DNA from: a virus
Lineage: Duplodnaviria > Caudoviricetes
Virus record (IMG/VR): IMGVR_UViG_3300017903_002946
Span: 16,570 to 80,569 of that record
Strand: one strand, 5' to 3'
Length of the DNA stretch: 64,000 bases
The notes under the pieces were generated by a model that made no database searches, was not told the DNA's origin, and was given only the letters and a program-made list of their open reading frames with translations. The position numbers and the translations under genes were made by a program. Shown here piece after piece: positions 8,436 to 48,589 of the stretch. Within the stretch, counting starts at the first letter, position 1; each line of letters begins with the position of its first letter.

Positions 8436-8870
8436 TTAACCAAATAGTCCTCCAAGACTTTGACCAAGACGACCACCAATCATGCCACCTATTGGTCCGC
8501 CAATTGCGGCTCCTCCAATTGTACCAACAGCGCCTAATGCTGAGCTAAACATTGATTTACTTGCGTCTTTTCTGGCTGCTGCTTTTATGGCATCAGCTTG
8601 TTTTTTTGCATCTTGTGCATCTGCAAAACCAGCCAGTCCTCCTATCCGTGCACCAAGTTCTGCATCCTTAATTGCATTAAAAATATTTGCCTGTGAGGCA
8701 GTATTTTGAGCAACAATTCCTGCAAAATCAGGTGCTGCAGCGCGATTAGCTTTAAAAATTCTTGCAACATTAACCGCATTTCCTGCGGTTCCGTAATTAC
8801 TGGTAGGTCCTCCAGTAATAGTTGGGGGTGTTAAATTTAAGCTAGATCCAGAAAGCGAGAAACTTGCCAT
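8436..8870 (-). CDS. Gly-zipper putative ejection protein
   Basis: C-terminal GAVGTIGGAAIGGPIGGMIGGRLG; 144 aa. Confidence 0.6.
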   Translation of the reverse strand: MASFSLSGSSLNLTPPTITGGPTSNYGTAGNAVNVARIFKANRAAAPDFAGIVAQNTASQANIFNAIKDAELGARIGGLAGFADAQDAKKQADAIKAAARKDASKSMFSSALGAVGTIGGAAIGGPIGGMIGGRLGQSLGGLFG

Positions 8871-8898
8871 AACAGCGTATCAGCCTTTGTATAGTGTA

Positions 8899-9327
8899 TC
8901 AATTAAATAATTGTGGCAGCATGAAATTATTTCCAGGCCCTGCTCCAGTTTCTATTCCTAAATCATTTATTTCTCCTTGACTTAAATCAACTCCATACGT
9001 TTTACCTCCAATTTCTGCTGTTGGGCCGCCACCAAATCCACCCAGTGCGGCACTACGTCCAATACCCCCTACCAAATCCATAACAGTACCAAACATACCA
9101 GCATTTTGTGTTTGTTGTTGTGCATAAGCACCCGCATCACGTAGAAGATCTTTGCGTTTAGATTCTCCAAACAAATCAAGCCCTTTTCCTGCCAGACGTC
9201 CAGCTCTTTTTGCAGCACTTCCTTTCATATATGCATTAGCTCTATTACGTGCATTTACAGCCATTCCTGTATCGAAAGAATCGCCCATAAAGCTTGTTAC
9301 ATCAATGCCTGAATTTAAAAAGCTCAT
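8899..9327 (-). CDS. Gly-rich putative internal virion protein
   Basis: 142 aa ORF in the tandem late cluster. Confidence 0.6.
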   Translation of the reverse strand: MSFLNSGIDVTSFMGDSFDTGMAVNARNRANAYMKGSAAKRAGRLAGKGLDLFGESKRKDLLRDAGAYAQQQTQNAGMFGTVMDLVGGIGRSAALGGFGGGPTAEIGGKTYGVDLSQGEINDLGIETGAGPGNNFMLPQLFN

Positions 9328-24720: not shown

Positions 24721-25662
24721 ATGCCCGCAAATTTCACATCTGGCTGGCTCGGCAACGGCGAACGTGCTTGGCACGGAATGGGTGTCGTCACTGACGGAAC
24801 CTTGCCAGCGCGAGAAGCGTTTGAAACAGCAGACGCACTCTTTACTGTCGAGAAGCGACCACTTTTCTACAACTGCGCAGACGAAGCAGACGGAGTACTT
24901 GAATCGGACGCATTTGCTGTCGTCCGTACCGATTCCGAACGCTTGCTCGGTGTTGTCTCCCGTCAATACGAGATCGTGCAGAACGATTCGCTCCTTCGGA
25001 TGGCCGAGTTCATCCGAGAAGAGGTTGACATGGACTGCGTCATCGTTTTATCGGATGGTGCCAAGGTCTGTTTTACCGCCACACTCCGTGGTGCGGCGAC
25101 GGACATCGTCCCTGGTGACACAGTAAAGCGTCGCATTGTTGGCTACCTCGGTCACGACGGCAAGACTGGCTGTGGCGCTAAGTTCACCAACATCCGTGTT
25201 GTCTGTCAAAACACACTGACTGCAGCACTCGGTGAATCTGGTGCACACAGCAGCATCACTCACAAGAACGGTGCTAACAACAACTTCGATGCTCTTATCA
25301 ATAGCATTGATGTAGCACGTCAGGACTTTGTTACTGAGTGTGAGCTGATGCGTGAGTTCTCGCAGTTTGCTATTACTAGCGCTCAGTTCAATGACTTTGT
25401 TGACCAGGTCTACAATATTGATGAAGGTCAAGTGTTCCGTAAGCGTGACAAAATCACTGCTGCTATGAACCGTGGCTATGGGGTTGAGTACAACCCTGGC
25501 ACTCTGTGGACTGCAGTTAATGCAATCACACAGATCGAGACAAGCACTCGTGGCACTACTGCTGCTAAGGGTCGTGCTCAGTTTGCACGTGGCACCTTCG
25601 GTGTCGGCGCTCAAATCAGCAAGAAAGCATTTGCTGTTGCACGTGAATTAGTATCTGCATAA
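24721..25662 (+). CDS. DUF932 / TIGR03299 phage-plasmid protein
   Basis: AWHGMG...TVEKRP...YEIVQN...TNIRVVCQNTL...GTLWTAVNA. Confidence 0.85.
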   Translation: MPANFTSGWLGNGERAWHGMGVVTDGTLPAREAFETADALFTVEKRPLFYNCADEADGVLESDAFAVVRTDSERLLGVVSRQYEIVQNDSLLRMAEFIREEVDMDCVIVLSDGAKVCFTATLRGAATDIVPGDTVKRRIVGYLGHDGKTGCGAKFTNIRVVCQNTLTAALGESGAHSSITHKNGANNNFDALINSIDVARQDFVTECELMREFSQFAITSAQFNDFVDQVYNIDEGQVFRKRDKITAAMNRGYGVEYNPGTLWTAVNAITQIETSTRGTTAAKGRAQFARGTFGVGAQISKKAFAVARELVSA

Positions 25663-26549: not shown

Positions 26550-27635
26550 ATGGCAACTAGCATCATTTCGGGTGCCCAGTCCCGCAAAACAAACTGGGAA
26601 TATTTTTGTGAATGGGTCACTAGTACAAACAATCGCCTCTATGTAGGTTGGTTTGGCGTACTAATGATTCCTACTCTTCTCGCAGCAACTATTTGTTTTA
26701 TTACTGCGTTTGTAGCAGCACCACCTGTCGATATTGATGGAATTCGTGAACCTGTAGCTGGATCTCTGCTTTATGGAAACAACATTATCTCCGGTGCCGT
26801 TGTACCATCCAGCAATGCAATCGGCTTACACTTTTATCCGATCTGGGAAGCAGCAACACTCGACGAGTGGCTGTATAACGGGGGACCTTTCCAACTCACG
26901 GTCTTTCACTTCCTTATCGGTATCTACGCTTACTTGGGACGAGAGTGGGAACTTAGTTACCGACTAGGAATGCGTCCTTGGATTTTCGTAGCATACAGCG
27001 CACCTGTTGCTGCAGCTTCTGCTGTTTTTCTTGTATATCCATTTGGCCAAGGATCTTTCTCTGATGCAATGCCCCTCGGCATCTCCGGAACATTCAACTA
27101 TATGTTTGTCTTCCAGGCTGAACACAATATCCTCATGCATCCCTTCCATATGCTCGGCGTTGCTGGGGTATTTGGTGGCAGTTTGTTTAGTGCTATGCAC
27201 GGAAGTCTGGTTACTTCTTCTCTTATTAGAGAAACGACTGAAGAAGTGAGCCAAAACTATGGCTATAAGTTTGGCCAAGAGGAAGAGACCTACAACATCG
27301 TGGCTGCCCATGGTTACTTTGGTCGCTTGATCTTCCAATACGCCTCCTTCAACAACAGCCGTAGCCTCCACTTCTTCTTGGCTGCCTGGCCTGTTATTGG
27401 CATTTGGTTTACCGCCTTGGGAGTGTCAACCATGGCCTTTAACTTGAACGGTTTCAACTTTAATCAGTCTATTCAATCATCTAAAGGACATGTTATTGAT
27501 ACATGGGCTGATATTTTGAATCGTGCAAGCCTTGGCATGGAAGTAATGCATGAGCGAAATGCTCATAACTTCCCTCTTGATCTTGCTACTGCAGATATTA
27601 CTCCTGTTGCGCTAATTGCACCATCTATTGGTTAA
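26550..27635 (+). CDS. psbA: Photosystem II D1 protein
   Basis: Full-length D1 with the Mn-cluster ligand region intact ([27 protein letters not shown]); RETTEEVSQ fits the viral-type PEST motif. Confidence 0.99.
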
Positions 27636-34015: not shown

Positions 34016-34243
34016 ATGTCGAAGAAAAGTAACATAATTGAAGCGAAAGGCACTATTTTTAAAGAAAGTGGCAACGGATATTTCAACGTAGAACTTGAAG
34101 AACCTAAAGGTCATAATTGTCTGTGCCGTGCCTCAGGTCGCTTGATCACTCGCAAGATTCAATTGCTTGTGGGTGATCGAGTTACTGTTGAATTGTCACC
34201 ATATGATCTTGATCGTGGACGTATAACACTCCGCGAAAAATGA
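34016..34243 (+). CDS. infA: Translation initiation factor IF-1 homolog
   Basis: IEAKGTI...FNVELE...SG...I.LLVGDRVTVELSPYDLDRGRIT; 75 aa. Confidence 0.88.
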   Translation: MSKKSNIIEAKGTIFKESGNGYFNVELEEPKGHNCLCRASGRLITRKIQLLVGDRVTVELSPYDLDRGRITLREK

Positions 34244-34725
34244 ACAAAACAACTATAAACTGGTATAACGCAATTAAAAAACAAATGACATTAGGAGATC
34301 AAGCACGAGTATTTCGCAAAACGTTTAATCAAGAAATACTTGATAATATTTCCCGCTACGGTTTCGTTAAGAAGCAATTGTGGGACATGCAAGTGGGACT
34401 TATTAACGAAGAATCTTGTGAGTTTCTTGAAGCTGCTGAGGAACTATATGCAGATCCTGAAGATCAAGACCTTCGTCAATCACTTGTTAAAGAGTTAAGT
34501 GATTTAGTCTTTGTCTGCTATCAATTTGCAGCTGCTTTTAATATTGATTTAGACAGGGCAATGACCCTTATTTTTGAATCTAATATGAGTAAACTAGATG
34601 CACAAGGCATGCCAATCTATCGAGAAGATGGCAAGGTTTTAAAGGGTCCTAACTATAAAGCTCCAGATCTTTCTTCGTGTTTGCCATTGCCCCTACTTTC
34701 TTATGACGAATCCCATGGAAAATAA
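34240..34725 (+). CDS. MazG-like/all-alpha NTP pyrophosphohydrolase
   Basis: LINEESCEF...KELSDL...ESNMSKL...REDGKVLKGPNY. Confidence 0.85.
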   Translation: MNKTTINWYNAIKKQMTLGDQARVFRKTFNQEILDNISRYGFVKKQLWDMQVGLINEESCEFLEAAEELYADPEDQDLRQSLVKELSDLVFVCYQFAAAFNIDLDRAMTLIFESNMSKLDAQGMPIYREDGKVLKGPNYKAPDLSSCLPLPLLSYDESHGK

Positions 34726-36142
34726 TCAAATGATTGCTCGTACTGGTCGAGTTCAATCCTGGATGGATGATCAAACCAGTCGGTTGCCTGTGTCGTGCAC
34801 AGTCTTTGTTGTTGATGACTCGATGGAAGGTCCTAATGGTATCGAAGCAAGCTGGCGTTTTGTCTCTCATGCACTTCGTAATGGCGCTGGAGTCGCGGTC
34901 CACCTTTCAAAACTACGCGCTAGAGGAAGCGATAATGGCAAGGGACTTGTTGCATCTGGTCCTTGCTCGTTTGGACAAATATATTCAATGCTCAACCAAA
35001 CTCTCAGACGAGGAGGTATCTATAAAAACGGAGCAGTAGTTCTTCATCTAGATATCAATCATCCTGATATCCTAGAATTTGTTCAAATGCAGCGTAACGA
35101 AATTCCTTGGGCTAAACGTTGCGTTAATGTCACAACTACATTTTGGAATGAAGCTACACGTGAAGTTAAAGATGCAATCATTGCTGGCATCAAACGTGGA
35201 GACATCTGGCTTGCAAAAATGCGCACTGATCAATACGGTCGGCGTATCTATGCAAACGTTTGTCTAGAAGTCTTTTTACGCTCACGTGGCACTTGTTTGT
35301 TGGAACACATTAACTTGGGTGCATGCACACCTGAAGAAATTCCTCAAGCTTTTGTAGATGGCATGGAAGAACTTATTGAATTGCACTCCAAAACTGGTGT
35401 AGAAAATACTGGTGAGTATTTAACCCAAGATGAAGATCGACAAGTTGGTCTTGGAATGCTTGGATTAGCTAATTTGTTGGCACTTGAAAAAGTTACTTAT
35501 GCACAATTTGCTGAAGCTTTAGAAGAATGCCTTTGGCCTGAAAGAAGCTATATCGTGACTCCTCCTGCCCGTAAAATTGTAAAAGCACTTAAGCGAGGCA
35601 TTGATGCCGCAGCAGCTGTAGCACGCCTGTCCAACATGGATCGTGCGTTTGCAATTGCTCCAACTGCATCATGCAGCTATCGCTACACTGATCGAGCAGG
35701 CTATACAACGGCCCCTGAATTGGCTCCGCCAATCGGGCGCACAGTTGATAGGGACAGCTCTACATTTGGGGTTCAATCCTTTGACTACGGTCTAGTTGAA
35801 ACAGCTGAAGAAGTCGGCTGGAATGACTACAAACGTACTGTTGATGGAATTATGGAACTTCTTAACCGCACTGGCCTTGCACACGGTTATAGTTTTAATT
35901 CTTGGAGTGATGTCGTAATTTACGACGATCAGTTTATTGATTCGTGGCTTGCATCTCCACAAACAAGTTTGTATTATTCATTGCAAGTCATGCAGAATAC
36001 CCAAGATAAAACTGATGCAATGGCTGCATTAGGCGGCAATTTCGAATCTATTTTTGGATTTGATGAATTAGATGCTGATGACAACGATGTGTCATTGACA
36101 ATGTTCAATGATCCTGCAGCCTGTGTAGGTTGCGCAGAATAA
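34703..36142 (+). CDS. nrdA: Ribonucleotide reductase alpha subunit, cyanophage P60/P-SSP7 type
   Basis: PVSCTV, NVCLEV, RQVGLGMLGL, AIAPTASCSY. Confidence 0.9.
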   Translation: MTNPMENNQMIARTGRVQSWMDDQTSRLPVSCTVFVVDDSMEGPNGIEASWRFVSHALRNGAGVAVHLSKLRARGSDNGKGLVASGPCSFGQIYSMLNQTLRRGGIYKNGAVVLHLDINHPDILEFVQMQRNEIPWAKRCVNVTTTFWNEATREVKDAIIAGIKRGDIWLAKMRTDQYGRRIYANVCLEVFLRSRGTCLLEHINLGACTPEEIPQAFVDGMEELIELHSKTGVENTGEYLTQDEDRQVGLGMLGLANLLALEKVTYAQFAEALEECLWPERSYIVTPPARKIVKALKRGIDAAAAVARLSNMDRAFAIAPTASCSYRYTDRAGYTTAPELAPPIGRTVDRDSSTFGVQSFDYGLVETAEEVGWNDYKRTVDGIMELLNRTGLAHGYSFNSWSDVVIYDDQFIDSWLASPQTSLYYSLQVMQNTQDKTDAMAALGGNFESIFGFDELDADDNDVSLTMFNDPAACVGCAE

Positions 36143-37402: not shown

Positions 37403-37485
37403 TTATCAGCAGCAGCTTTTATTGCTTGTTAAAAAGTATACCCAACAACTTACTATTAAGCAACTTAAACAATTAATTGCTAAAC

Positions 37486-38109
37486 ATGCATAATGCTAAA
37501 CTTGTTTGGATAACTCCAGACGCAGAAAAACTTATTGGCAAAATTGCAAGAGTTTCAAATCCTAAAAACGAAGACAATCCTAATGTCGAAAAACTCATCC
37601 GATATCTTATCAAACACAAACACTGGAGCCCATTTGAAATGGCGTCCATGTGCGTCGAGATTAAGACTACACGCGCTATTGCTCCGCAAATATTACGCCA
37701 CAGATCCTTCTCATTTCAAGAGTTCAGTCAACGCTATGCAATCCCAACTGAATTAGTTGTTCCTGATCTTCGTCGTCAAGATTTGAAAAATAGACAAAAT
37801 AGTATTGATGATTTACCTAAAGAAACAGTCGAATTGCTTCAACACCAAATCAATAATCATTATCGAAGCTCTTTAGATATTTATAATAGTATGTTGGACT
37901 ATGGTGTAGCTAAAGAGTGTGCGCGTTCTGTTCTCCCTCTTAATACAGCAACACGTTTATATATGTCCGGTACTATTAGAAGTTGGCTTCATTATGTTGA
38001 TCTTCGAGCTGATAATGGCACACAACATGAGCACATGATAATTGCCAGATCAATTGGAGAATTACTTGCCGATCAAGTTCCTACTATTGCTCGCGCAATG
38101 TGGGACTGA
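37486..38109 (+). CDS. thyX: FAD-dependent thymidylate synthase
   Basis: HWSPFE, QILRHRSFSFQEFSQRY. Confidence 0.95.
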   Translation: MHNAKLVWITPDAEKLIGKIARVSNPKNEDNPNVEKLIRYLIKHKHWSPFEMASMCVEIKTTRAIAPQILRHRSFSFQEFSQRYAIPTELVVPDLRRQDLKNRQNSIDDLPKETVELLQHQINNHYRSSLDIYNSMLDYGVAKECARSVLPLNTATRLYMSGTIRSWLHYVDLRADNGTQHEHMIIARSIGELLADQVPTIARAMWD

Positions 38110-40414: not shown

Positions 40415-41174
40415 TAAACCTTATAGAATTCAAACTTCTGCCGGACATAGAAAATATCTATGCTCCGGCATTTATATGCCAAGTGTAACCACTGTATTAT
40501 CTGCCACTGAATCAGAAAAATCTAAAGCAGGTTTACGTACATGGCAAAAGAATAATCCGGGTGCGCTAGAGGAGGCATCTACTCGCGGCTCTGCTATTCA
40601 TCTTGGTTGTGAAAACTATATTCGTGGATTGGATCCCAATATTCCTGATGAATTTCAAGAATTTTGGAATGGTATTTCGACATACCTAGATTGGTTTGAT
40701 ACAATTCATTGGTCAGAGCGTCCTTTACGTCCTGATTGGAATCACCTTAGAAGTGATGACAAAGAAGTTGCTTACGTTTGGAGTACAGAACATCGATATG
40801 CTGGTTGTCCAGATTTAATCGGTGAAATTGGCGGTGTACGAGTTATTGCTGATTTTAAAACAAGCAATACTCCTTACTGCTCAACTTTTCCTGAACGTGG
40901 TGACCGTATGGGTTTTGGCGGTTATCGCAAATATACTAAGTGTGCTCAACAAATGGCTGCTTATCGGTATGCCTTAAATGAGCGGACAGGGTTTCTTTGT
41001 GATGTTGCCCTTATCATTGTTTCTACACCGGAAACAACACAAGGAATATTTATTGATGGAGATCAACTAGCTCTTCACGAATCGCGTTTTTTAAAACGTT
41101 GTCAACAATTTCATGAGATAGATAATGAAACTAAGGATTGCAGTCAACAAGAATTGCAAGAACAAACTAACTAA
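40404..41174 (+). CDS. PD-(D/E)xK exonuclease
   Basis: PSVTTVL, RGSAIH, AGCPDL, ADFKTS, QMAAY. Confidence 0.88.
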   Translation: MTTDKPYRIQTSAGHRKYLCSGIYMPSVTTVLSATESEKSKAGLRTWQKNNPGALEEASTRGSAIHLGCENYIRGLDPNIPDEFQEFWNGISTYLDWFDTIHWSERPLRPDWNHLRSDDKEVAYVWSTEHRYAGCPDLIGEIGGVRVIADFKTSNTPYCSTFPERGDRMGFGGYRKYTKCAQQMAAYRYALNERTGFLCDVALIIVSTPETTQGIFIDGDQLALHESRFLKRCQQFHEIDNETKDCSQQELQEQTN

Positions 41175-43347
41175 ACCTGCACATGATTGGCAAAATATTA
41201 ACGAAGATATTGAATGGTTACTTGGTTGGGTTCAGCAAGGTTATGGCTGGTGCGCAACTCATTTTCATAACAGGCATCGTAAATCTGATAATTCAGTAGG
41301 TTCAAATGTCATTGTTATTGATTTTGATGGAGATACTTCGCTTGCACGTTTTTGGTCAACTGACACTGCTCGACATTGGTGTGCTGCTACTTATACGTCT
41401 GCAAGCCACAGTGAACAAGAACATCGGTTTCGAGCTCTTTTTCCACTAGCTCGATTGCTTAATAGCTCTGCAGAACATCGTGGTGCCTACTGGCTTATTG
41501 TTAATCGATTACTTGCTGAGTTAGAGCTTGAAGGGCTCGCTGACAATTGCGGTCAAAAACCTGAACGGCTTTGGTTTGGAAATTCAAATACTGAAATTCA
41601 ATCAAATAAAGAATGTGAACCTGTACCTGAGTTCTTGCTAGAAGATATTGCTTATGAAGAAGCCTCAAACTTTAATAGTTCAGACATTACTGATATAGAT
41701 ATTAAACGCTGTCAGTGGCTTCTAGAATCCTTTTTACGCCCTTCTGAAGATGGTGAGTATGAAACCTATTATGTGCCTGTCATGGCTGCTTGTGCAGGCA
41801 TTGGTGAACCTATGTTCGATTCATGGGTTACATGGGTATTAAATGGCCATCACGGAGAAAAGCAAGAAAATATTCAACCATTTAAGTGGCGAGGTCTCGG
41901 TAATTATTCAGGTCATACTACACTTTATTCGCTTGCTAAAAAGCAAGATCCAGATTGGGCTAAAAAACTTCCTGTTAATCTAAGATTTGGTGCTCTTGGA
42001 GCTGCCGGAGGTTATACCGAGTTTGATCCTATTCATAACTTTGATAAGTACATAAATACAATGGAATTAAGCGCACAACAAAATGACATTGACATCGAAC
42101 CAATTCCTGATTCACAGCAAGTAAAACGTAGAGGGCGTCCAAAAAAATCATCTGATGATCTTGCAAAAGAACGTGAAAGCGATGTTACTAAGGTAAAAGA
42201 TATTCTTCACGATTTACGTAAAAATGAACTAACAAGTGCAATTGAGTACACTGACAACCAAGGTCAAACTATTGCTTTGCAAGGTAACGACCTTGATCTA
42301 ATGACTGTTAAAGTTGCATGTGAAAATGGTATTTTTATTCCAGAAGCACGTATTAAAAGCGCGATTCAATATGCAGCATCTAAAAATTTATACTGCCCAA
42401 TCAAAAAGTATCTAGAGAAGTGTGCTGCAACTTGTGCACCACATACTGATTGGAATCGTGTAGGAAAAATATTTCTTGGCAACAGTTATGCAATTGCTAC
42501 AACTGCAATGCAACGCATGATGATTGGTGCTGTAGCACGTGCATTTAATCCTGGATGTTCTATGTCTTGGCTTCCGATTTTAGTAGGTCCTCAAGGAGCT
42601 GGTAAATCTATGTTTGCTCGGTGCCTTGTACCCCAAAACCTTTTTTCAGAAATTACTACACCACTAGAAACTCTGATGAAAGAGCAATATCGATTGCATG
42701 TTGCATGGCTTTTAGAGCTTCCTGAAATTGATAACTATTTTAATTCACGTAACATTGAAAACTTTAAAAATCTTGTTACTACAAGAGTAGATGAAGTTAG
42801 ATTTCCTTATGCATCTTTACCAAGCAAATTGGCTCGTAGGTTTGTTCTGATTGGAACGACTAATAGAAATCAATTTTTGGTTGATAGTACTGGCAATAGA
42901 CGCTTTGTACCACTTGAAATTGGTCCTAACTTTCAAATCCCTTGGAAGGAGCTTAATATTCAACGAGATTATCTTTGGTCAGCAGCTGTTCACGCATATA
43001 GAAATGGAGAAGGTTACGAATTTAATAGTGGCGAAATTGCTGCTATTGCTGATTACATCCAAGAGTTTGGTGATCCAGATCCTTGGCTTGACAAAGTTGC
43101 ATCTTATGTAGCTATTCGTGATGAAGTAAGTGCTGCGGAAGTTTTAACTAACGCACTAGAGCTTGATCCTCGCAGTCAAGGCAGAAGAGAAGGACGAAGA
43201 GTTGCAGATATTCTCCAGTCAATGGGATGGAGACGTCTTGTCACTTCACGAAAAGATCCACTTACAAACAAATCAAAATCTGTTCGTATTTGGCAGCGTC
43301 CTAGCAATGATCCTCTTATTGAAGATCACATATTGAACGACTTTTAA
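41125..43347 (+). CDS. AEP-type primase fused to VirE/VapE-family helicase-ATPase
   Basis: N-terminal VIDFDG and YTSASH...RFRALF; C-terminal GPQGAGKS, LELPEID, GTTN...TGNRRF. Confidence 0.88.
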   Translation: MKLRIAVNKNCKNKLTKPAHDWQNINEDIEWLLGWVQQGYGWCATHFHNRHRKSDNSVGSNVIVIDFDGDTSLARFWSTDTARHWCAATYTSASHSEQEHRFRALFPLARLLNSSAEHRGAYWLIVNRLLAELELEGLADNCGQKPERLWFGNSNTEIQSNKECEPVPEFLLEDIAYEEASNFNSSDITDIDIKRCQWLLESFLRPSEDGEYETYYVPVMAACAGIGEPMFDSWVTWVLNGHHGEKQENIQPFKWRGLGNYSGHTTLYSLAKKQDPDWAKKLPVNLRFGALGAAGGYTEFDPIHNFDKYINTMELSAQQNDIDIEPIPDSQQVKRRGRPKKSSDDLAKERESDVTKVKDILHDLRKNELTSAIEYTDNQGQTIALQGNDLDLMTVKVACENGIFIPEARIKSAIQYAASKNLYCPIKKYLEKCAATCAPHTDWNRVGKIFLGNSYAIATTAMQRMMIGAVARAFNPGCSMSWLPILVGPQGAGKSMFARCLVPQNLFSEITTPLETLMKEQYRLHVAWLLELPEIDNYFNSRNIENFKNLVTTRVDEVRFPYASLPSKLARRFVLIGTTNRNQFLVDSTGNRRFVPLEIGPNFQIPWKELNIQRDYLWSAAVHAYRNGEGYEFNSGEIAAIADYIQEFGDPDPWLDKVASYVAIRDEVSAAEVLTNALELDPRSQGRREGRRVADILQSMGWRRLVTSRKDPLTNKSKSVRIWQRPSNDPLIEDHILNDF

Positions 43348-43386: not shown

Positions 43387-43623
43387 ATGAAAGCCAAAGA
43401 TATTAAAATCGGACAACGTGTTGTTACTTCTCCAGGAGAACGTATTGCACTTGTAGTTGGTAAACCTGAATTTTATACTCCACGTGCCCAACTCGTAAGA
43501 ATTAAGTACGAAAATAGCACTCGTTACGAGTATAAAATGAATCATCAGCTAGAGCTTCTTCCTATTGAACAACAATATGAAGTACATGGTGGTCATCATA
43601 TTAAACCTGATAGTGATTTTTGA
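43387..43623 (+). CDS. Small beta-rich (SH3/KOW-like) protein
   Basis: 78 aa; DIKIGQRVV...LVRIKY. Confidence 0.55.
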   Translation: MKAKDIKIGQRVVTSPGERIALVVGKPEFYTPRAQLVRIKYENSTRYEYKMNHQLELLPIEQQYEVHGGHHIKPDSDF

Positions 43624-44417
43624 TGTCTGAATCAACTCCTAATCGTAAAGTTGGTGGTCATGCTTACGGTAGACGCAACTTAAACCTTTCAAATACTGCA
43701 GAAGAAGGAACATTATGTATTTACAGCGGCCATTCTATTGGCCGTTTTAGTGCTACTTCAATGCGTTTTGATAGTCATCAAGCGTGTGTTCGATGTGTGG
43801 CTGCAGCAAGAGAAGGTAGAATGTCTTTTGACATTAATCGACTGCTTAAGAAAGAACGCAAACGTGCTCTTAAGTTTTGGTCTAAAGTTGATATTGATCA
43901 ACCTGACGAATGCTGGGAGTGGCAGGGTTATAAAGCTCCTGGCAATGGAATGCCGCAGTTTCCTTGGAGACGGCCTGGAATTAGCAGTAGCACTCAACAT
44001 CATCCTCAGCGCGTAGCTATGTGGTATACGTGGGGAGATCTTGGTTATACCGGTGTAAAAACTACTTGCGGTAATAAATATTGCTGCAATCCATTTCATT
44101 TAATTCCTCAAAAAATTGGTGTTTTTGTTGATCAAGATTCTTATCTTGAAAGCTTTGAACTTGCCTGTGAACTGCATACACTTAAGCAGCAAGTAGCTGA
44201 ATATGCTGTTGAACAAGCTTTAAAAGAGCAAGAAATGATTACTAATGCTCAAGAACTTGACGACCGTGCAAATCTAACGTTTGCTCCAAATTCTGAATTT
44301 GCTGACCGTTGGGAAGCAGTTGTAGAAGATATTATTAATGGTAGACACTCTAGTCAATTCAATTCGTCTCAACTAAATAGTGAGGATGAAGAAAATAATA
44401 CCACAAATAATGAATAA
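43623..44417 (+). CDS. HNH-derived protein with apparent loss of the catalytic His
   Basis: FWSKVD...CWEWQG...QRVAMW...VKTTCGNKYCCNPFHL; canonical V.H.CDN has T in place of H. Confidence 0.65.
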   Translation: MSESTPNRKVGGHAYGRRNLNLSNTAEEGTLCIYSGHSIGRFSATSMRFDSHQACVRCVAAAREGRMSFDINRLLKKERKRALKFWSKVDIDQPDECWEWQGYKAPGNGMPQFPWRRPGISSSTQHHPQRVAMWYTWGDLGYTGVKTTCGNKYCCNPFHLIPQKIGVFVDQDSYLESFELACELHTLKQQVAEYAVEQALKEQEMITNAQELDDRANLTFAPNSEFADRWEAVVEDIINGRHSSQFNSSQLNSEDEENNTTNNE

Positions 44418-44449
44418 TTAATTTATCCTAAATAGAGAGTCATTCTATT

Positions 44450-44869
44450 ATGTCTAGACGCAACGATCTGATTCAGCAATTAATTGCTTCAGAAAAATTT
44501 GGTCCTGAAAAAGAACAAGAGCAGAAGTTTCTCATGGCTACTGCAGAATTGATCCTTTCAGATCTTATTAATATTGCTCTTAACGGCGTAGAAAAGCATG
44601 GTCCAGGTTCACTTGTGATTAACTTATTGAATGATTCAACTACTTTCATGTGGGCAGAATCAATTGAAATTGATCTTCAAATTTCTGAACGTGAAAACGA
44701 TACAGATGTGAACGAGTTTTTACGAAAACTTTTACAGGAGATTAATGAAAATGATTGGTCGCAAAACGTGCTTATTACATTAATTAGTGATGCTGGAACA
44801 AGAACATTTGCAGTCGAAGCAGGTCGGAGCCAAGAAAGCTTTAGAGCGCTCGCAGAAGAATTTATCTGA
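44450..44869 (+). CDS. Hypothetical protein
   Basis: 139 aa ORF. Confidence 0.65.
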   Translation: MSRRNDLIQQLIASEKFGPEKEQEQKFLMATAELILSDLINIALNGVEKHGPGSLVINLLNDSTTFMWAESIEIDLQISERENDTDVNEFLRKLLQEINENDWSQNVLITLISDAGTRTFAVEAGRSQESFRALAEEFI

Positions 44870-45458
44870 TAAACTTGCTTCTAAAGGTTTAAAGCTTCCT
44901 CTCTATCCAACGCCTCAACTCATTGATAGAGCAAGGCAAGTCATGGGTAGCATTGACTTTGACCCAACATCTGATCCTGTGCAGCAAGTACTTGTTGAAG
45001 CTACTTCAGTTCCTACTATTGATGTTAATCCACTTCAAGAACATTGGCATGGTAACGTTTGGATTGCACCTAAAGGTGCTGTAAAAAACTGCCGTATTTG
45101 GCTAAACAAAACTATTAATGAATATCGCAATGGTCATATTAATAGTTTTATTTTTTTTAGTAGTGCTTCTGAATTACTACGTGCTGCACCAATTGTGTGG
45201 GATTATCCCATTTGTATTCCTTTCAAAAGAGTTAAACAACTCCGAGCAACGTCAACAGGATTTGAATCTGTATGTCCATCTACATGGAATTTAATTGTCT
45301 ATGGTCCTCCTATTCATCAAGCATTAACTGATATTGATAAAGTTTCTTTGTTTTATAACAACTTTAGAGATATTGGTCGTGTTATTTATAGCGAATATGC
45401 AGGTGATGGGTGGCAAAAGGATCTTGAGTATTACGAAGAAAATAAAGGTAATATCTAA
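44787..45458 (+). CDS. DNA N6-adenine methyltransferase-like protein with degenerate motif IV
   Basis: LYPTPQ...GSIDFDPTS...WHGNVWIAPKG; NPPY is replaced by APKG. Confidence 0.65.
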   Translation: MMLEQEHLQSKQVGAKKALERSQKNLSDKLASKGLKLPLYPTPQLIDRARQVMGSIDFDPTSDPVQQVLVEATSVPTIDVNPLQEHWHGNVWIAPKGAVKNCRIWLNKTINEYRNGHINSFIFFSSASELLRAAPIVWDYPICIPFKRVKQLRATSTGFESVCPSTWNLIVYGPPIHQALTDIDKVSLFYNNFRDIGRVIYSEYAGDGWQKDLEYYEENKGNI

Positions 45459-45871
45459 TGAGTAAACATATTGCTCAAGATTATTTTTATGTGCTTCCTT
45501 CCGAGAGCAAAGTCCATCCTTGCCGTCTCATTACAAAAGATGGAACTTTAATGTGGAAGCACGCTTTGCTTTATCAAAACTCTCAATTATTTTTACCCAT
45601 TTCTGAGGCTCACGAACAACACATAATAAAAACTGCTCAGCGCTTAGAAGAGCTGAACAGTTGGGTGTCACAAGGACTTGAGCCTTGGGAATGTTTTTCA
45701 ATTAAAGCGTGGTATCAACCTAACGAATCTGAGTTATCTGAAGGTATCTCTGCTTACTTCACTCATACAACTCATGACCTTACTTTTACTTATACAAACT
45801 TATTGCCACACATCCAAGATCATGAGAATTTTGAACTACGTGACAAATATCTATTCTTTCGTCGCTGTTGA
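45458..45871 (+). CDS. Possible peptidase M15-derived protein lacking Zn ligands
   Basis: TAQRLEEL...SIKAWYQP...SELSEGISAY against M15 LA..LE.vR...ITSwYR...SxH..GxAxD. Confidence 0.4.
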   Translation: MSKHIAQDYFYVLPSESKVHPCRLITKDGTLMWKHALLYQNSQLFLPISEAHEQHIIKTAQRLEELNSWVSQGLEPWECFSIKAWYQPNESELSEGISAYFTHTTHDLTFTYTNLLPHIQDHENFELRDKYLFFRRC

Positions 45872-45898
45872 CAACAAGGCCGCATATCTGCGGCTTTA

Positions 45899-46186
45899 TT
45901 AGTCTAGCGAATTAATTAATCTAGTAAGATACCATTGCGCTTTTTCAGCATCTTCTTTACTTTTCTTTTTATGCCAAAGTCTAATCATATATTTTAAAAC
46001 TTGGCCTTGAAGAAAACCTAGCATTGGAGATGGCGCACTATTGATTGAATCTTCAATTACATCTATAGCTTCTACACGTCCTTGTGTGTAATGTTTAGGA
46101 TTGTGCACCATACTATAATTAACGTCATTACTTTCAAACAACTTTTTATTTTCTGAATTCATTATTCTCACATCTAAATCAGTCAC
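45899..46186 (-). CDS. DUF3310 (T7 gp1.7-like) protein
   Basis: VHNPKHY...EAIDVI...GQVLKY..R...K...ED.EKA.WYL. Confidence 0.85.
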   Translation of the reverse strand: MTDLDVRIMNSENKKLFESNDVNYSMVHNPKHYTQGRVEAIDVIEDSINSAPSPMLGFLQGQVLKYMIRLWHKKKSKEDAEKAQWYLTRLINSLD

Positions 46187-46216
46187 TTCCTAATATAGAG
46201 TCAATGAATTACTGAT

Positions 46217-46768
46217 GTGGATATGCCCAGCCCTAAAGGTGACCCAACTTTTATTAAAAATAAAGAGAAATATTTTATAAATGTTGCACAAACTATTGCA
46301 CAAGCCTCAACACATCCAAAATCTCCTGGAGGATGTATTATTGTGCGTGATCGAGAAATTATTGGAAATGGCAGAAGTTTATTAACTGACAGTAAAGTTG
46401 AAGTTGATTGCATTTCATATGCAGTAGCTGCTGCTGCTAAAGCTGGTACTCCAGCTATTGGCGCAGTTATATACAGCACTAGATATCCATTTTCTATATC
46501 TATTTTTCAAGCACATATGATGGGTATTCGTAAAATTGTGATACTTGCTCATGAGTGGGAGCCGTATTATCGAGAAGAATTTAGACGTGCCGGTCGTTTA
46601 GCAAGAGAATTACAAGTAGCAATTGAACCTATATTTCTAGATGAAGACCCAAGATTTACACAAAATACAAATGACAGAAACATTGATCCAGTTCTCTTCC
46701 CAGAAGCGAACCCGTTCACGCCAGATGAATATGATCCAGATAATGCAAAAGACACCTTCGATGAATGA
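46217..46768 (+). CDS. dCMP-deaminase-fold protein lacking HAE and PCxxC
   Basis: YFINVAQ..A..S...GCIIV.D..IIGNG; VDC and YPFSIS occupy the Zn-site positions. Confidence 0.65.
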   Translation: MDMPSPKGDPTFIKNKEKYFINVAQTIAQASTHPKSPGGCIIVRDREIIGNGRSLLTDSKVEVDCISYAVAAAAKAGTPAIGAVIYSTRYPFSISIFQAHMMGIRKIVILAHEWEPYYREEFRRAGRLARELQVAIEPIFLDEDPRFTQNTNDRNIDPVLFPEANPFTPDEYDPDNAKDTFDE

Positions 46769-47285
46769 ACAAATTATTTTTGACCTTGAATCCACTGGTT
46801 TATTACGACAAGGATCCCGTATTCACTGCATTGTTATGCGAAACGGTAACGATGGCGGCACTTCTGTGTTTGACCATCGTCCTGAGCAATCAATCATACA
46901 AGGAGTAAAAGAACTAGAACAGGCGGATGTATTGATTGGCCATAACATTATTGGCTATGACATCCCATTGATCAAAGAGCAGTTTCCTGAATTCAAGCCT
47001 CAAGGCCAGGCCATTGATACTCTTGTTCTGAGCCGTCTTTTTTATCCACATATTGCAGATAGAGACTACGAACGTCGTCCACACGGAATGCCACAAAGGC
47101 TGTACGGACGACATAGCCTTGAGGCCTGGGGTTATCGCCTTAAGTGCTTTAAAGGTGACTTTGGCAAGCACGAAGGCAACTGGTCTGTTTATACACCTGA
47201 GATGCTTGACTACTGCATCCAAGACACCGAAGTAACGCTCAAACTTTGGGCACTAATGAAACGTCGTATGGAAGATTACTCATGA
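46761..47285 (+). CDS. 3'-5' exonuclease half of a split family A DNA polymerase
   Basis: ExoI FDLES, ExoII GHNIIGYD, ExoIII YCIQD. Confidence 0.9.
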   Translation: MNEQIIFDLESTGLLRQGSRIHCIVMRNGNDGGTSVFDHRPEQSIIQGVKELEQADVLIGHNIIGYDIPLIKEQFPEFKPQGQAIDTLVLSRLFYPHIADRDYERRPHGMPQRLYGRHSLEAWGYRLKCFKGDFGKHEGNWSVYTPEMLDYCIQDTEVTLKLWALMKRRMEDYS

Positions 47286-48589
47286 CTATGAATGATTGTG
47301 TCTTGCTTGAAATGCAGATGGCAGAAATCATGTCACAACAAGAAGCCAGTGGCTTCCGTTTTGATGTAGCTGCTGCAGAGAGAGTGCGTGGTGAACTCCA
47401 AGAAGAAGTTACCCAACTTGAGCAATCAATTCAATCACGTTATATTTATGTACCAGGAAAAGTTTATACACCTAAACGGGCAAACAAGACTAAGGGATAT
47501 GTAGCCGGTGCTCCTTTGACGAAGCTGTTGGACTTCAACCCAACATCACGTCAACATATTGCCTGGGCATTGCAGAACTTCCGTGGAGCTCGCTTCACCA
47601 AAGTCACAGACACCGGTAAGCCCAAGGTTGATGAAGCAACCCTTTCTGAGATGCGTGACCTCGCTTTGTCTCAAGGCAACAAGCTCCTGCATGAGGAGTG
47701 TGAAATGTTCATCCGTCTGTTGACCTTACAGAAATGGTTGGGCCAGCTGTCTGAGGGGACAAATTCCTGGTTTAACACAATTGAAGATGACGGGTGTATT
47801 CACCACAGCTGCACTCTTGCGACCCAAACCGGGCGTAATGCGCACCGTGGTCCCAACCTTGGACAAGTGGTGTCCGCACCTTGGGCACGTCAGTTGTTTG
47901 TTCCACATCCTGGTCATGTCATGGTCGGGGCTGACTTGGAAGGCTTAGAGCTCAGATGCCTAGGACATTATCTATCTGTTTATGATGAAGGCTCATTTGC
48001 TGACGTTGTACTGAATGGTGATATTCACCAGCAGAATGCTGACCGTGTTGGTTGCAGTCGTAAAGAAGTAAAAACTATTACCTATGCATTCATCTATGGG
48101 GCGGGCGACCAGAAGCTCGGTCATAGCTTGCATCCTGAGCTTAGCGATGCTCAAAAAAAGCAACTAGGCAGCGAACTACGCCGTAAATTTCTTGATGCAA
48201 TTCCTGGATTGGAGCCACTTATTGATGCAGTTAAACATAAGGTTCGTGGAAGCGGTCGTCTTAGGGGGCTTGATGGGCGTCCTATATTCTGCCGTGCTGA
48301 GCACGCCGCCCTCAACTACTTACTTCAATCAGCAGGAGCCGTTTTATCAAAGCGATGGGTGGTAATTTCTCAGCAAATGCTTGATAGCGCAGGTCTTACC
48401 TACAACATTGACTACACCCGTTGTGCATACGTGCACGATGAACAGCAGCTCTCGGTTGTACCCCAAGAAGTTGATAGGATCAAAATGTTGCTAGAAAATT
48501 CGGCACCTGAAGCAGGACGTTACTATAACTTTCGTGTTCCAATCACTGCTTCTGCAGATCATGGAGAAAATTGGGCAAATACTCATTAA
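47282..48589 (+). CDS. polA: Family A DNA polymerase, polymerase half (T7 gp5-like)
   Basis: Motif A ADLEGLELR, motif B RKEVKTITYAFIYG (Tyr at the E. coli 762 position), motif C YVHDE. Confidence 0.93.
   Translation: MTMNDCVLLEMQMAEIMSQQEASGFRFDVAAAERVRGELQEEVTQLEQSIQSRYIYVPGKVYTPKRANKTKGYVAGAPLTKLLDFNPTSRQHIAWALQNFRGARFTKVTDTGKPKVDEATLSEMRDLALSQGNKLLHEECEMFIRLLTLQKWLGQLSEGTNSWFNTIEDDGCIHHSCTLATQTGRNAHRGPNLGQVVSAPWARQLFVPHPGHVMVGADLEGLELRCLGHYLSVYDEGSFADVVLNGDIHQQNADRVGCSRKEVKTITYAFIYGAGDQKLGHSLHPELSDAQKKQLGSELRRKFLDAIPGLEPLIDAVKHKVRGSGRLRGLDGRPIFCRAEHAALNYLLQSAGAVLSKRWVVISQQMLDSAGLTYNIDYTRCAYVHDEQQLSVVPQEVDRIKMLLENSAPEAGRYYNFRVPITASADHGENWANTH

Follow-up and report, generated by a model that had tools for sequence, protein, structure and literature searches.

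The replication region of the virus genome IMGVR_UViG_3300017903_002946 raises the question of why a phage should keep a row of enzyme folds from which the catalytic residues are missing. The record is a complete 80,569-bp IMG/VR genome with direct terminal repeats, and the window, i.e. the whole stretch of 64,000 nucleotides analysed here, covers its bases 16570-80569. A preliminary description, made from the sequence alone, had noticed four apparent pseudoenzymes between the genes for a primase-helicase and a DNA polymerase: an HNH fold, an N6-adenine methyltransferase fold, a possible M15 peptidase fold and a dCMP deaminase fold, here called O1, O3, O4 and O5, respectively (O2 is a further small gene between O1 and O3). 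Here we report a computational analysis of these genes. We consider it probable that O1, O3, O4 and O5 are enzyme-derived proteins that have lost their ancestral catalytic residues, are held under strong purifying selection and most likely act as non-catalytic binders or subunits. The loss of the canonical catalytic residues is demonstrated at residue level for O1, O3 and O5, and is inferred for O4.

The genome encodes psbA, a large terminase, a ribonucleotide reductase, ThyX and a MazG-like protein, and this gene content identifies the virus as a cyanophage. Viral contigs hold no fewer than 177 close relatives (78-100% identity for O3), and parts of the stretch are also present in read libraries that bear the label marine or seawater metagenome. 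The sole cultured relative found is Synechococcus phage S-EIV1 (KJ410740), from polar freshwater, to which O1 and O3 are 24-25% identical at the protein level. The phage is a widespread marine psbA-carrying cyanophage and distant kin of S-EIV1. Relatives of S-EIV1, collected as genomic operational taxonomic unit (gOTU) G238, were estimated to account for ~3% of marine cyanophage abundance (PMC5332604); the lineage of the window may or may not belong to G238. In the following, sister lineages are marine relatives with homologues at 25-35% identity, of which 13 loci (L092-L104) were used for the linkage of O2, the Dam-like gene and the O4-like gene; selection and stop-codon tests were based on 40-81 relatives per gene.

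O3 is derived from the PF05869 family of phage-type N6-adenine methylases (Dam). Taken alone, its sequence has no Pfam or PHROG match and stays below the PF05869 threshold, and profile searches with O3 and with active Dam relatives against PDB sequences gave no match. An exhaustive representative search with O3 returned 2538 relatives, and 27 of the 41 sampled were PF05869 Dam proteins. Profile-profile comparison (hhalign) of the O3 clade with the NPPY-bearing members gave a probability of 99.9% and an E-value of 7e-37 over 164 columns. Motif IV of the relatives, N-P-P-Y/F, aligns with A93-P94-K95-G96 of O3, in agreement with the adenine methyltransferase fold with APKG for NPPY that had been read from the sequence. 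P-K-G-A stands unchanged in all 81 lineage members. Every family motif except motif IV is retained, with G-x-I-D-x-D-P-x-S (IDFDPTS), W-x-G and P-x-C-x-P-x-x-R shared by O3 and the Dam proteins; IDFDPTS, for which we assume a role in S-adenosylmethionine (SAM) binding, is conserved across the clade without motif IV. In a tree of 129 representatives this motif-less clade, which includes O3, has a Shimodaira-Hasegawa-like approximate likelihood ratio test (SH-aLRT) support of 98. The tetrapeptide at motif IV differs by lineage within it (APKG, GAPT, GVPV, FPPN in S-EIV1, and others), and the clade has a C-terminal extension. O3 differs from PF05869 Dam also by an O2-like gene that always precedes it.

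A large PF05869 subclade reads N-P-P-G-G and is devoid of the motif IV aromatic residue (for example P0172, P0181 and P0265). In the same tree the NPPGG assemblage groups with the motif-less clade without forming one supported clade (support 7), and both stand apart from the NPPY members with a support of 99. One NPPGG member (L109) is located among genes for a nucleoside deoxyribosyltransferase, a deoxynucleoside monophosphate (dNMP)-kinase-like protein and a family-A DNA polymerase. A literature search returned nothing relevant on NPPGG proteins or on phage pseudo-methyltransferases.

O1 matched PHROG HNH families with E-values from 2.6e-11 to 5e-4, and tblastn retrieved annotated HNH endonucleases with 37-38% identity over the core (~75-100 residues). 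HNH endonucleases read V-x-H-x-C-D-N-x-x-C-x-N-P-x-H-L-x-x-G-T-x-x-D-N and the aligned segment of O1 reads V-K-T-T-C-G-N-K-Y-C-C-N-P-F-H-L-I-P-Q-K; the core C-x-N-x-x-C-x-N-P-x-H-L is thus present, with C150, N152, C155, N157, P158 and H160 invariant against the annotated endonucleases. The general-base histidine, two residues before the first core cysteine, is replaced by Thr148 (265-amino-acid numbering), which is invariant in 63 lineage members. The threonine had been recognised in the preliminary description; the metal-binding Asn segment G-T-x-x-D-N that follows H-L is missing as well, both from O1 and from every homologue aligned. Across the sister lineages and S-EIV1 the general-base position is occupied by A, M, H, T or R and the structural Cys and His residues are retained, a pattern that fits a site freed from catalytic constraint in a scaffold that would still be needed.

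In its E-C-W...C-x-N-x-x-C-x-N-P-x-H-L core, O1 resembles HNH_3/I-PpoI-type homing endonucleases such as gp46 of Corynebacterium phage StAB and gp120 of Gordonia phage Schomber. Unlike these proteins, it has Thr for the general-base His and is without the GYGQF and GT..DN segments; it further differs by an N-terminal C..H..C..C element, conserved across the marine lineages, and by an acidic C-terminal tail, and O1 has nothing that corresponds to the C-terminal segment of StAB gp46, HVTV-1 and Schomber gp120. A homologue of the 78-amino-acid protein encoded upstream of O1 lies directly 5' of the O1 homologue in L092, L096, L087 and L090, with one open reading frame (ORF) intervening in the ORF list of L101. 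As a pair, the 78-amino-acid gene and O1 are conserved across the marine sister lineages.

O5 scored 23.7-25 bits against PF00383 (cut-off 25), and its family profile matched the RibD deaminase domain (E 1.3e-5) and dCMP deaminase (E 1e-3). Its AlphaFold2 model, with a predicted local distance difference test (pLDDT) score of 73 and a core of 80-93, retrieved by Foldseek the dCMP deaminases of PBCV-1, human, S-TIM5, S. mutans and T4 with E-values from 8e-11 to 8e-8. For the PBCV-1 bi-DCD (7fh4), cyanophage S-TIM5 (4p9c) and T4 Cd (1vq2) enzymes, which share the cytidine deaminase (CDA) fold with O5, the E-values were 8e-11 to 1e-8 and the template modelling (TM) scores by target 0.76-0.80. This bears out the earlier assignment of a dCMP deaminase fold without HAE and PCxxC. 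The PCxxC motif is represented by P91-F92-S93-I94-S95, of which P91 and F92 are invariant, and residues 55-70 are free of His whatever the register, HAE falling on K-V-E, V-E-V or D-C-I in the different alignments. In its sequence, O5 is devoid of any possible His/Cys/Cys zinc ligand set; E62 and D64 are invariant. Residues ~145-183 (46640-46768) form a conserved, acidic tail that is predicted to be disordered, N-P-F-x-P-D-E-Y-D-P...T-F-D-E. Unlike dCMP deaminases, O5 has no zinc site, carries this ~40-residue tail and is probably translationally coupled to the exonuclease gene of the polymerase.

Searches with O5 by tblastn against GenBank phages gave no match. In the sister genomes an O5 profile genome search was blank, and direct hmmsearch on six-frame translations found their deaminases, so the earlier blank was a limit of sensitivity. 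These sister-lineage deaminases, which the O5 profile matches (hhalign 94.5%), have HAE and C-x-x-C intact and lie at another genome position. Two of them (L092:3275-3781 and L101:3964-4503) show the unusual spacing P-L-M-T-C-S-Q-C in place of P-C-x-x-C.

O4 had been the weakest call of the preliminary description and now has support at the level of fold. Its sequence has no Pfam or PHROG match, and an O4 profile against PDB sequences returned nothing relevant. The AlphaFold2 model (pLDDT 85.5, predicted TM score 0.80) placed hedgehog N-domains at the top of a Foldseek search of the PDB (probability up to 0.98, E ~0.07), phage M15A peptidases in BFVD, and cyanobacterial clusters with 100% PF08291 in the ESM Atlas, with TM scores of 0.74-0.76 over 124-125 of 137 residues and a root-mean-square deviation of 2.4-2.8. 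LAS/M15 proteins thus rank first in four independent libraries (PDB by Foldseek, PDB by VIA, BFVD and ESM Atlas). The motif S-x-H-x-x-G-x-A-x-D maps to S91-E-L93-S-E-G96-I-S98-A-Y100, and the C-terminal f-v-H-v-D strand to L-F-F-R-R, the register being set by the order of strands and helices in the model, not by coordinates. On this mapping O4 would lack the H-D-H zinc ligands, with Leu, Tyr and Phe/Arg for His, Asp and His. It is homologous to the gene that follows the Dam-like gene in the sister lineages (hhalign 92%, E 5e-7), and no His, Asp or Glu is conserved in both families. Compared with peptidase M15A (PF08291) and the hedgehog N-terminal domain, O4 has no sequence similarity and has probably lost the zinc ligands; unlike M15A, it is a single 137-amino-acid domain without a cell-wall-binding domain, encoded in the replication region and not in the lysis region.

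Across the relatives tested, no stop codon was found in any frame of the interval, although dS was near saturation (1.1-2.0), and dN/dS (the ratio of nonsynonymous to synonymous substitution rates) was 0.05-0.15. The values for O1 (0.08), O3 (0.05) and O5 (0.09) stand beside 0.06 for the polymerase and 0.07 for the primase-helicase. Intact frames at such dS, together with low dN/dS, exclude decay, and the motif substitutions are fixed within the lineage. The earlier statements that the frames are full-length, tightly packed (the overlaps were read from the DNA) and free of decay are upheld, and the reading as retained dead enzymes is supported. The losses in O1, O3 and O4 recur in the sister lineages, and those in O1 and O3 also in S-EIV1; the O1 and O3 losses are older than the divergence from S-EIV1, and the probable O4 loss is older than that from the marine sister lineages. 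As the sister lineages keep an intact deaminase, the O5 loss is lineage-specific, yet it is fixed and under selection.

As one four-gene island, the interval holds up only in part. Its four enzyme-fold genes are present, as described, but it has five plus-strand genes, O2 having been omitted, and a minus-strand DUF3310 gene. Comparison divides its content into the pair of the 78-amino-acid gene and O1, the triad O2-O3-O4, and O5 coupled to the polymerase, units that are apart from one another in the sister lineages. Genes like O2, Dam and O4 are adjacent in 13 of 13 sister loci, and S-EIV1 keeps the O2-like/Dam-like pair, with the O2-like gene always directly 5' of the Dam-like gene. Since in the sister lineages this triad follows ThyX, apart from O1, the island consists of several independent conserved units that are contiguous in this phage. 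A literature search found no description of a conserved arrangement of these degenerate variants. The 261-266-amino-acid ORFs that follow the Dam-like gene in L102 and L104 were judged spurious, the true O4-like frame there being 8465-9172.

O2 itself yielded no lead from Pfam, PHROG or the Atlas, and a profile search of the PDB brought up only designed proteins, which were discounted. It overlaps O3 by 80 nucleotides in a different frame, and the conserved N-terminal 30 residues of O3 may reflect constraint on the overlapping O2. A programmed frameshift that would fuse O2 to O3 was considered and rejected, as the sister lineages have separate genes that abut or overlap by a few bases at most.

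How might such proteins act? O1 would have kept a zinc-structured DNA-binding scaffold and, with its 78-amino-acid partner, might form a DNA-binding factor. O2, O3 and O4 may work as one unit, in which O3, with its probable cofactor-binding motif IDxDPxS, would not be able to flip and methylate adenine and could bind a cofactor, DNA or both in company with O2 and O4. O5 may be a zinc-less deaminase shell, coupled to the exonuclease gene, that would be an accessory protein, binding nucleotides or the replisome via its acidic tail. T7 gp2.5 and gp4 bind polymerase via acidic C-terminal tails, which the tail of O5 resembles. METTL14, DNMT3L and ciliate MTA9 are methyltransferase folds with a degenerate catalytic loop, kept under selection as non-catalytic subunits. 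These proteins pair with an active paralogue, whereas no recognisable active DNA methylase was found in the whole phage genome, where the conserved neighbours of O3 are O2 and a probably dead M15-fold protein. Likewise, ADAT3/Tad3 are pseudo-deaminase subunits, but no active partner deaminase was found in the phage genome. Family-model searches gave no other match to PF00383, PF05869, PF01555, PF02086 or PF00145 elsewhere in the genome.

Several observations weigh against a purely non-catalytic role. O3 keeps all family-wide motifs but motif IV, and its invariant P-K-G-A could mean changed chemistry rather than a dead site. The invariant E62 of O5 aligns with the Glu of HAE by BLASTP and HMMER, although in hhalign it lies one residue off and a further HMMER alignment gaps HAE. 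Five histidines of O4 (H20, H52, H55, H118, H122) are lineage-invariant and could form another metal site; they are not kept in the sister family, so no family-wide metal site is evident. Finally, no active dCMP deaminase, nor a dCTP deaminase like that of S-EIV1, is recognisable in the genome, although ThyX and ribonucleotide reductase are present, and an active O5 would fill this gap in deoxycytidine-to-deoxyuridine conversion. One or more of the proteins may still be an enzyme with non-canonical chemistry. O3, for example, could be a SAM-dependent transferase that does not act on N6 of adenine in DNA but on a nucleotide or a protein, or that transfers a group other than methyl, and O5 could process nucleotides without a metal. 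The retained IDxDPxS, W..G and C..P..R motifs, the lineage-invariant replacement tetrapeptide, the invariant Glu of O5 and the presence of ThyX without another deaminase speak for it, and the neighbourhood of the NPPGG member described above hints at nucleotide-level roles. Variation of motif IV between lineages would, however, not be expected if the clade shared a new active site, the general-base position of O1 varies freely, and O5 has no zinc ligand set, whereas deamination by the CDA fold needs a zinc-bound water. We regard residual enzymatic activity as unlikely.

In a further reading, O2, the motif-less O3 and the zinc-less O4 would be a dedicated complex of S-EIV1-type cyanophages. Such a complex might serve non-catalytic recognition of DNA or SAM, as a METTL14-like scaffold without an active paralogue that could, for example, hijack or block a host methylase or defence system, or it might carry out a new SAM-dependent modification of DNA or nucleotides that replaces adenine methylation; this proposal is speculative and rather doubtful. 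It is quite improbable that the fold calls are partly wrong, chiefly for O4, whose M15/LAS likeness would then be a common alpha/beta arrangement without enzyme ancestry, leaving only three pseudoenzymes; against this, LAS/M15 proteins come first in each of the four libraries, with the Atlas TM scores obtained to clusters that are entirely PF08291. Neutral pseudogenisation of once-active genes would account for the absence of canonical catalytic residues, but is hardly credible given frames that stay intact in all relatives tested at near-saturated dS, the low dN/dS, and homologues that persist at 25-35% identity in the sister lineages.

Almost none of the replication-region genes of S-EIV1-type phages has an assigned function, and several of their hypothetical proteins are now seen as probable ancient exaptations of enzyme folds. 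The linked sets, the 78-amino-acid gene with O1 and O2-O3-O4, give concrete testable hypotheses. The analysis also delimits an entire clade of Dam-derived proteins in which motif IV is lacking, together with the NPPGG group; annotation pipelines would miss these or miscall them as methyltransferases. If O2-O3-O4 turned out to form a complex, it would exemplify in a phage a pseudo-methyltransferase scaffold without an active partner.

Features of the interval between the primase-helicase and DNA polymerase genes, with their borders (window coordinates)
Feature	Coordinates	Strand	Basis or remark
Primase-helicase (VapE/D5-like), upstream border	41125..43347	+	PF05272 5e-48; PHROG DNA helicase/primase families
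78-amino-acid protein, O1 partner gene; possibly small SH3-like barrel	43387..43623	+	Weak SH3_18 match, E 0.03
O1, His-Me finger/HNH-derived	43623..44417	+	PHROG HNH 2.6e-11; alignments with HNH endonucleases
O2, 139 amino acids, no fold assignment	44450..44869	+	Homologues 5' of Dam-like gene in sister lineages and S-EIV1
O3, PF05869 Dam-derived	44790..45458	+	Profile homology; start and overlap read from DNA
O4, peptidase M15A/LAS (hedgehog, DD-peptidase) fold	45458..45871	+	AlphaFold2 model; fold searches
GC-rich terminator-like hairpin between convergent O4 and DUF3310 genes	45879..45894		
DUF3310 protein, breaks plus-strand run	45899..46186	-	PF11753 2e-17
O5, dCMP-deaminase-fold protein	46217..46768	+	PF00383 at cut-off; AlphaFold2/Foldseek; real start may be ATG 46223
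Split family-A DNA polymerase, downstream border	46641..48589	+	Exonuclease ORF (likely start ATG 46761) and polymerase ORF 47246-48589; PHROG DNA polymerase families, PF00476

The stop codon of the 78-amino-acid gene overlaps the ATG of O1 in TGATG at 43621-43625, O3 and O4 share one nucleotide at 45458, and the O5 stop overlaps the likely exonuclease start. The RNA libraries of three marine metatranscriptome studies contain short contigs that match, at 95-99%, parts of O2, O4 (its 3' end), DUF3310 and O5; they are a weak hint of expression, as they may derive from DNA and are not proof of transcription, and no weight attaches to the parts left uncovered. The deepest of these contigs (depth 30-44) stop exactly at the hairpin end, 45894, which hints weakly at a terminator.

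In the sister locus L090, an ORF at 994-1413 with a match to the Acb2/Tad1-hairpin Pfam family lies beside an intact dCMP deaminase and upstream of a pair like the 78-amino-acid gene and O1. Acb2/Tad1-hairpin proteins are a family of anti-CBASS/Thoeris sponges. In the window itself, genes for a DUF932 protein (24721-25662), psbA (26550-27635), the MazG-like protein and ribonucleotide reductase (34240-36142) and ThyX (37477-38109) are located upstream of the interval on the same strand.

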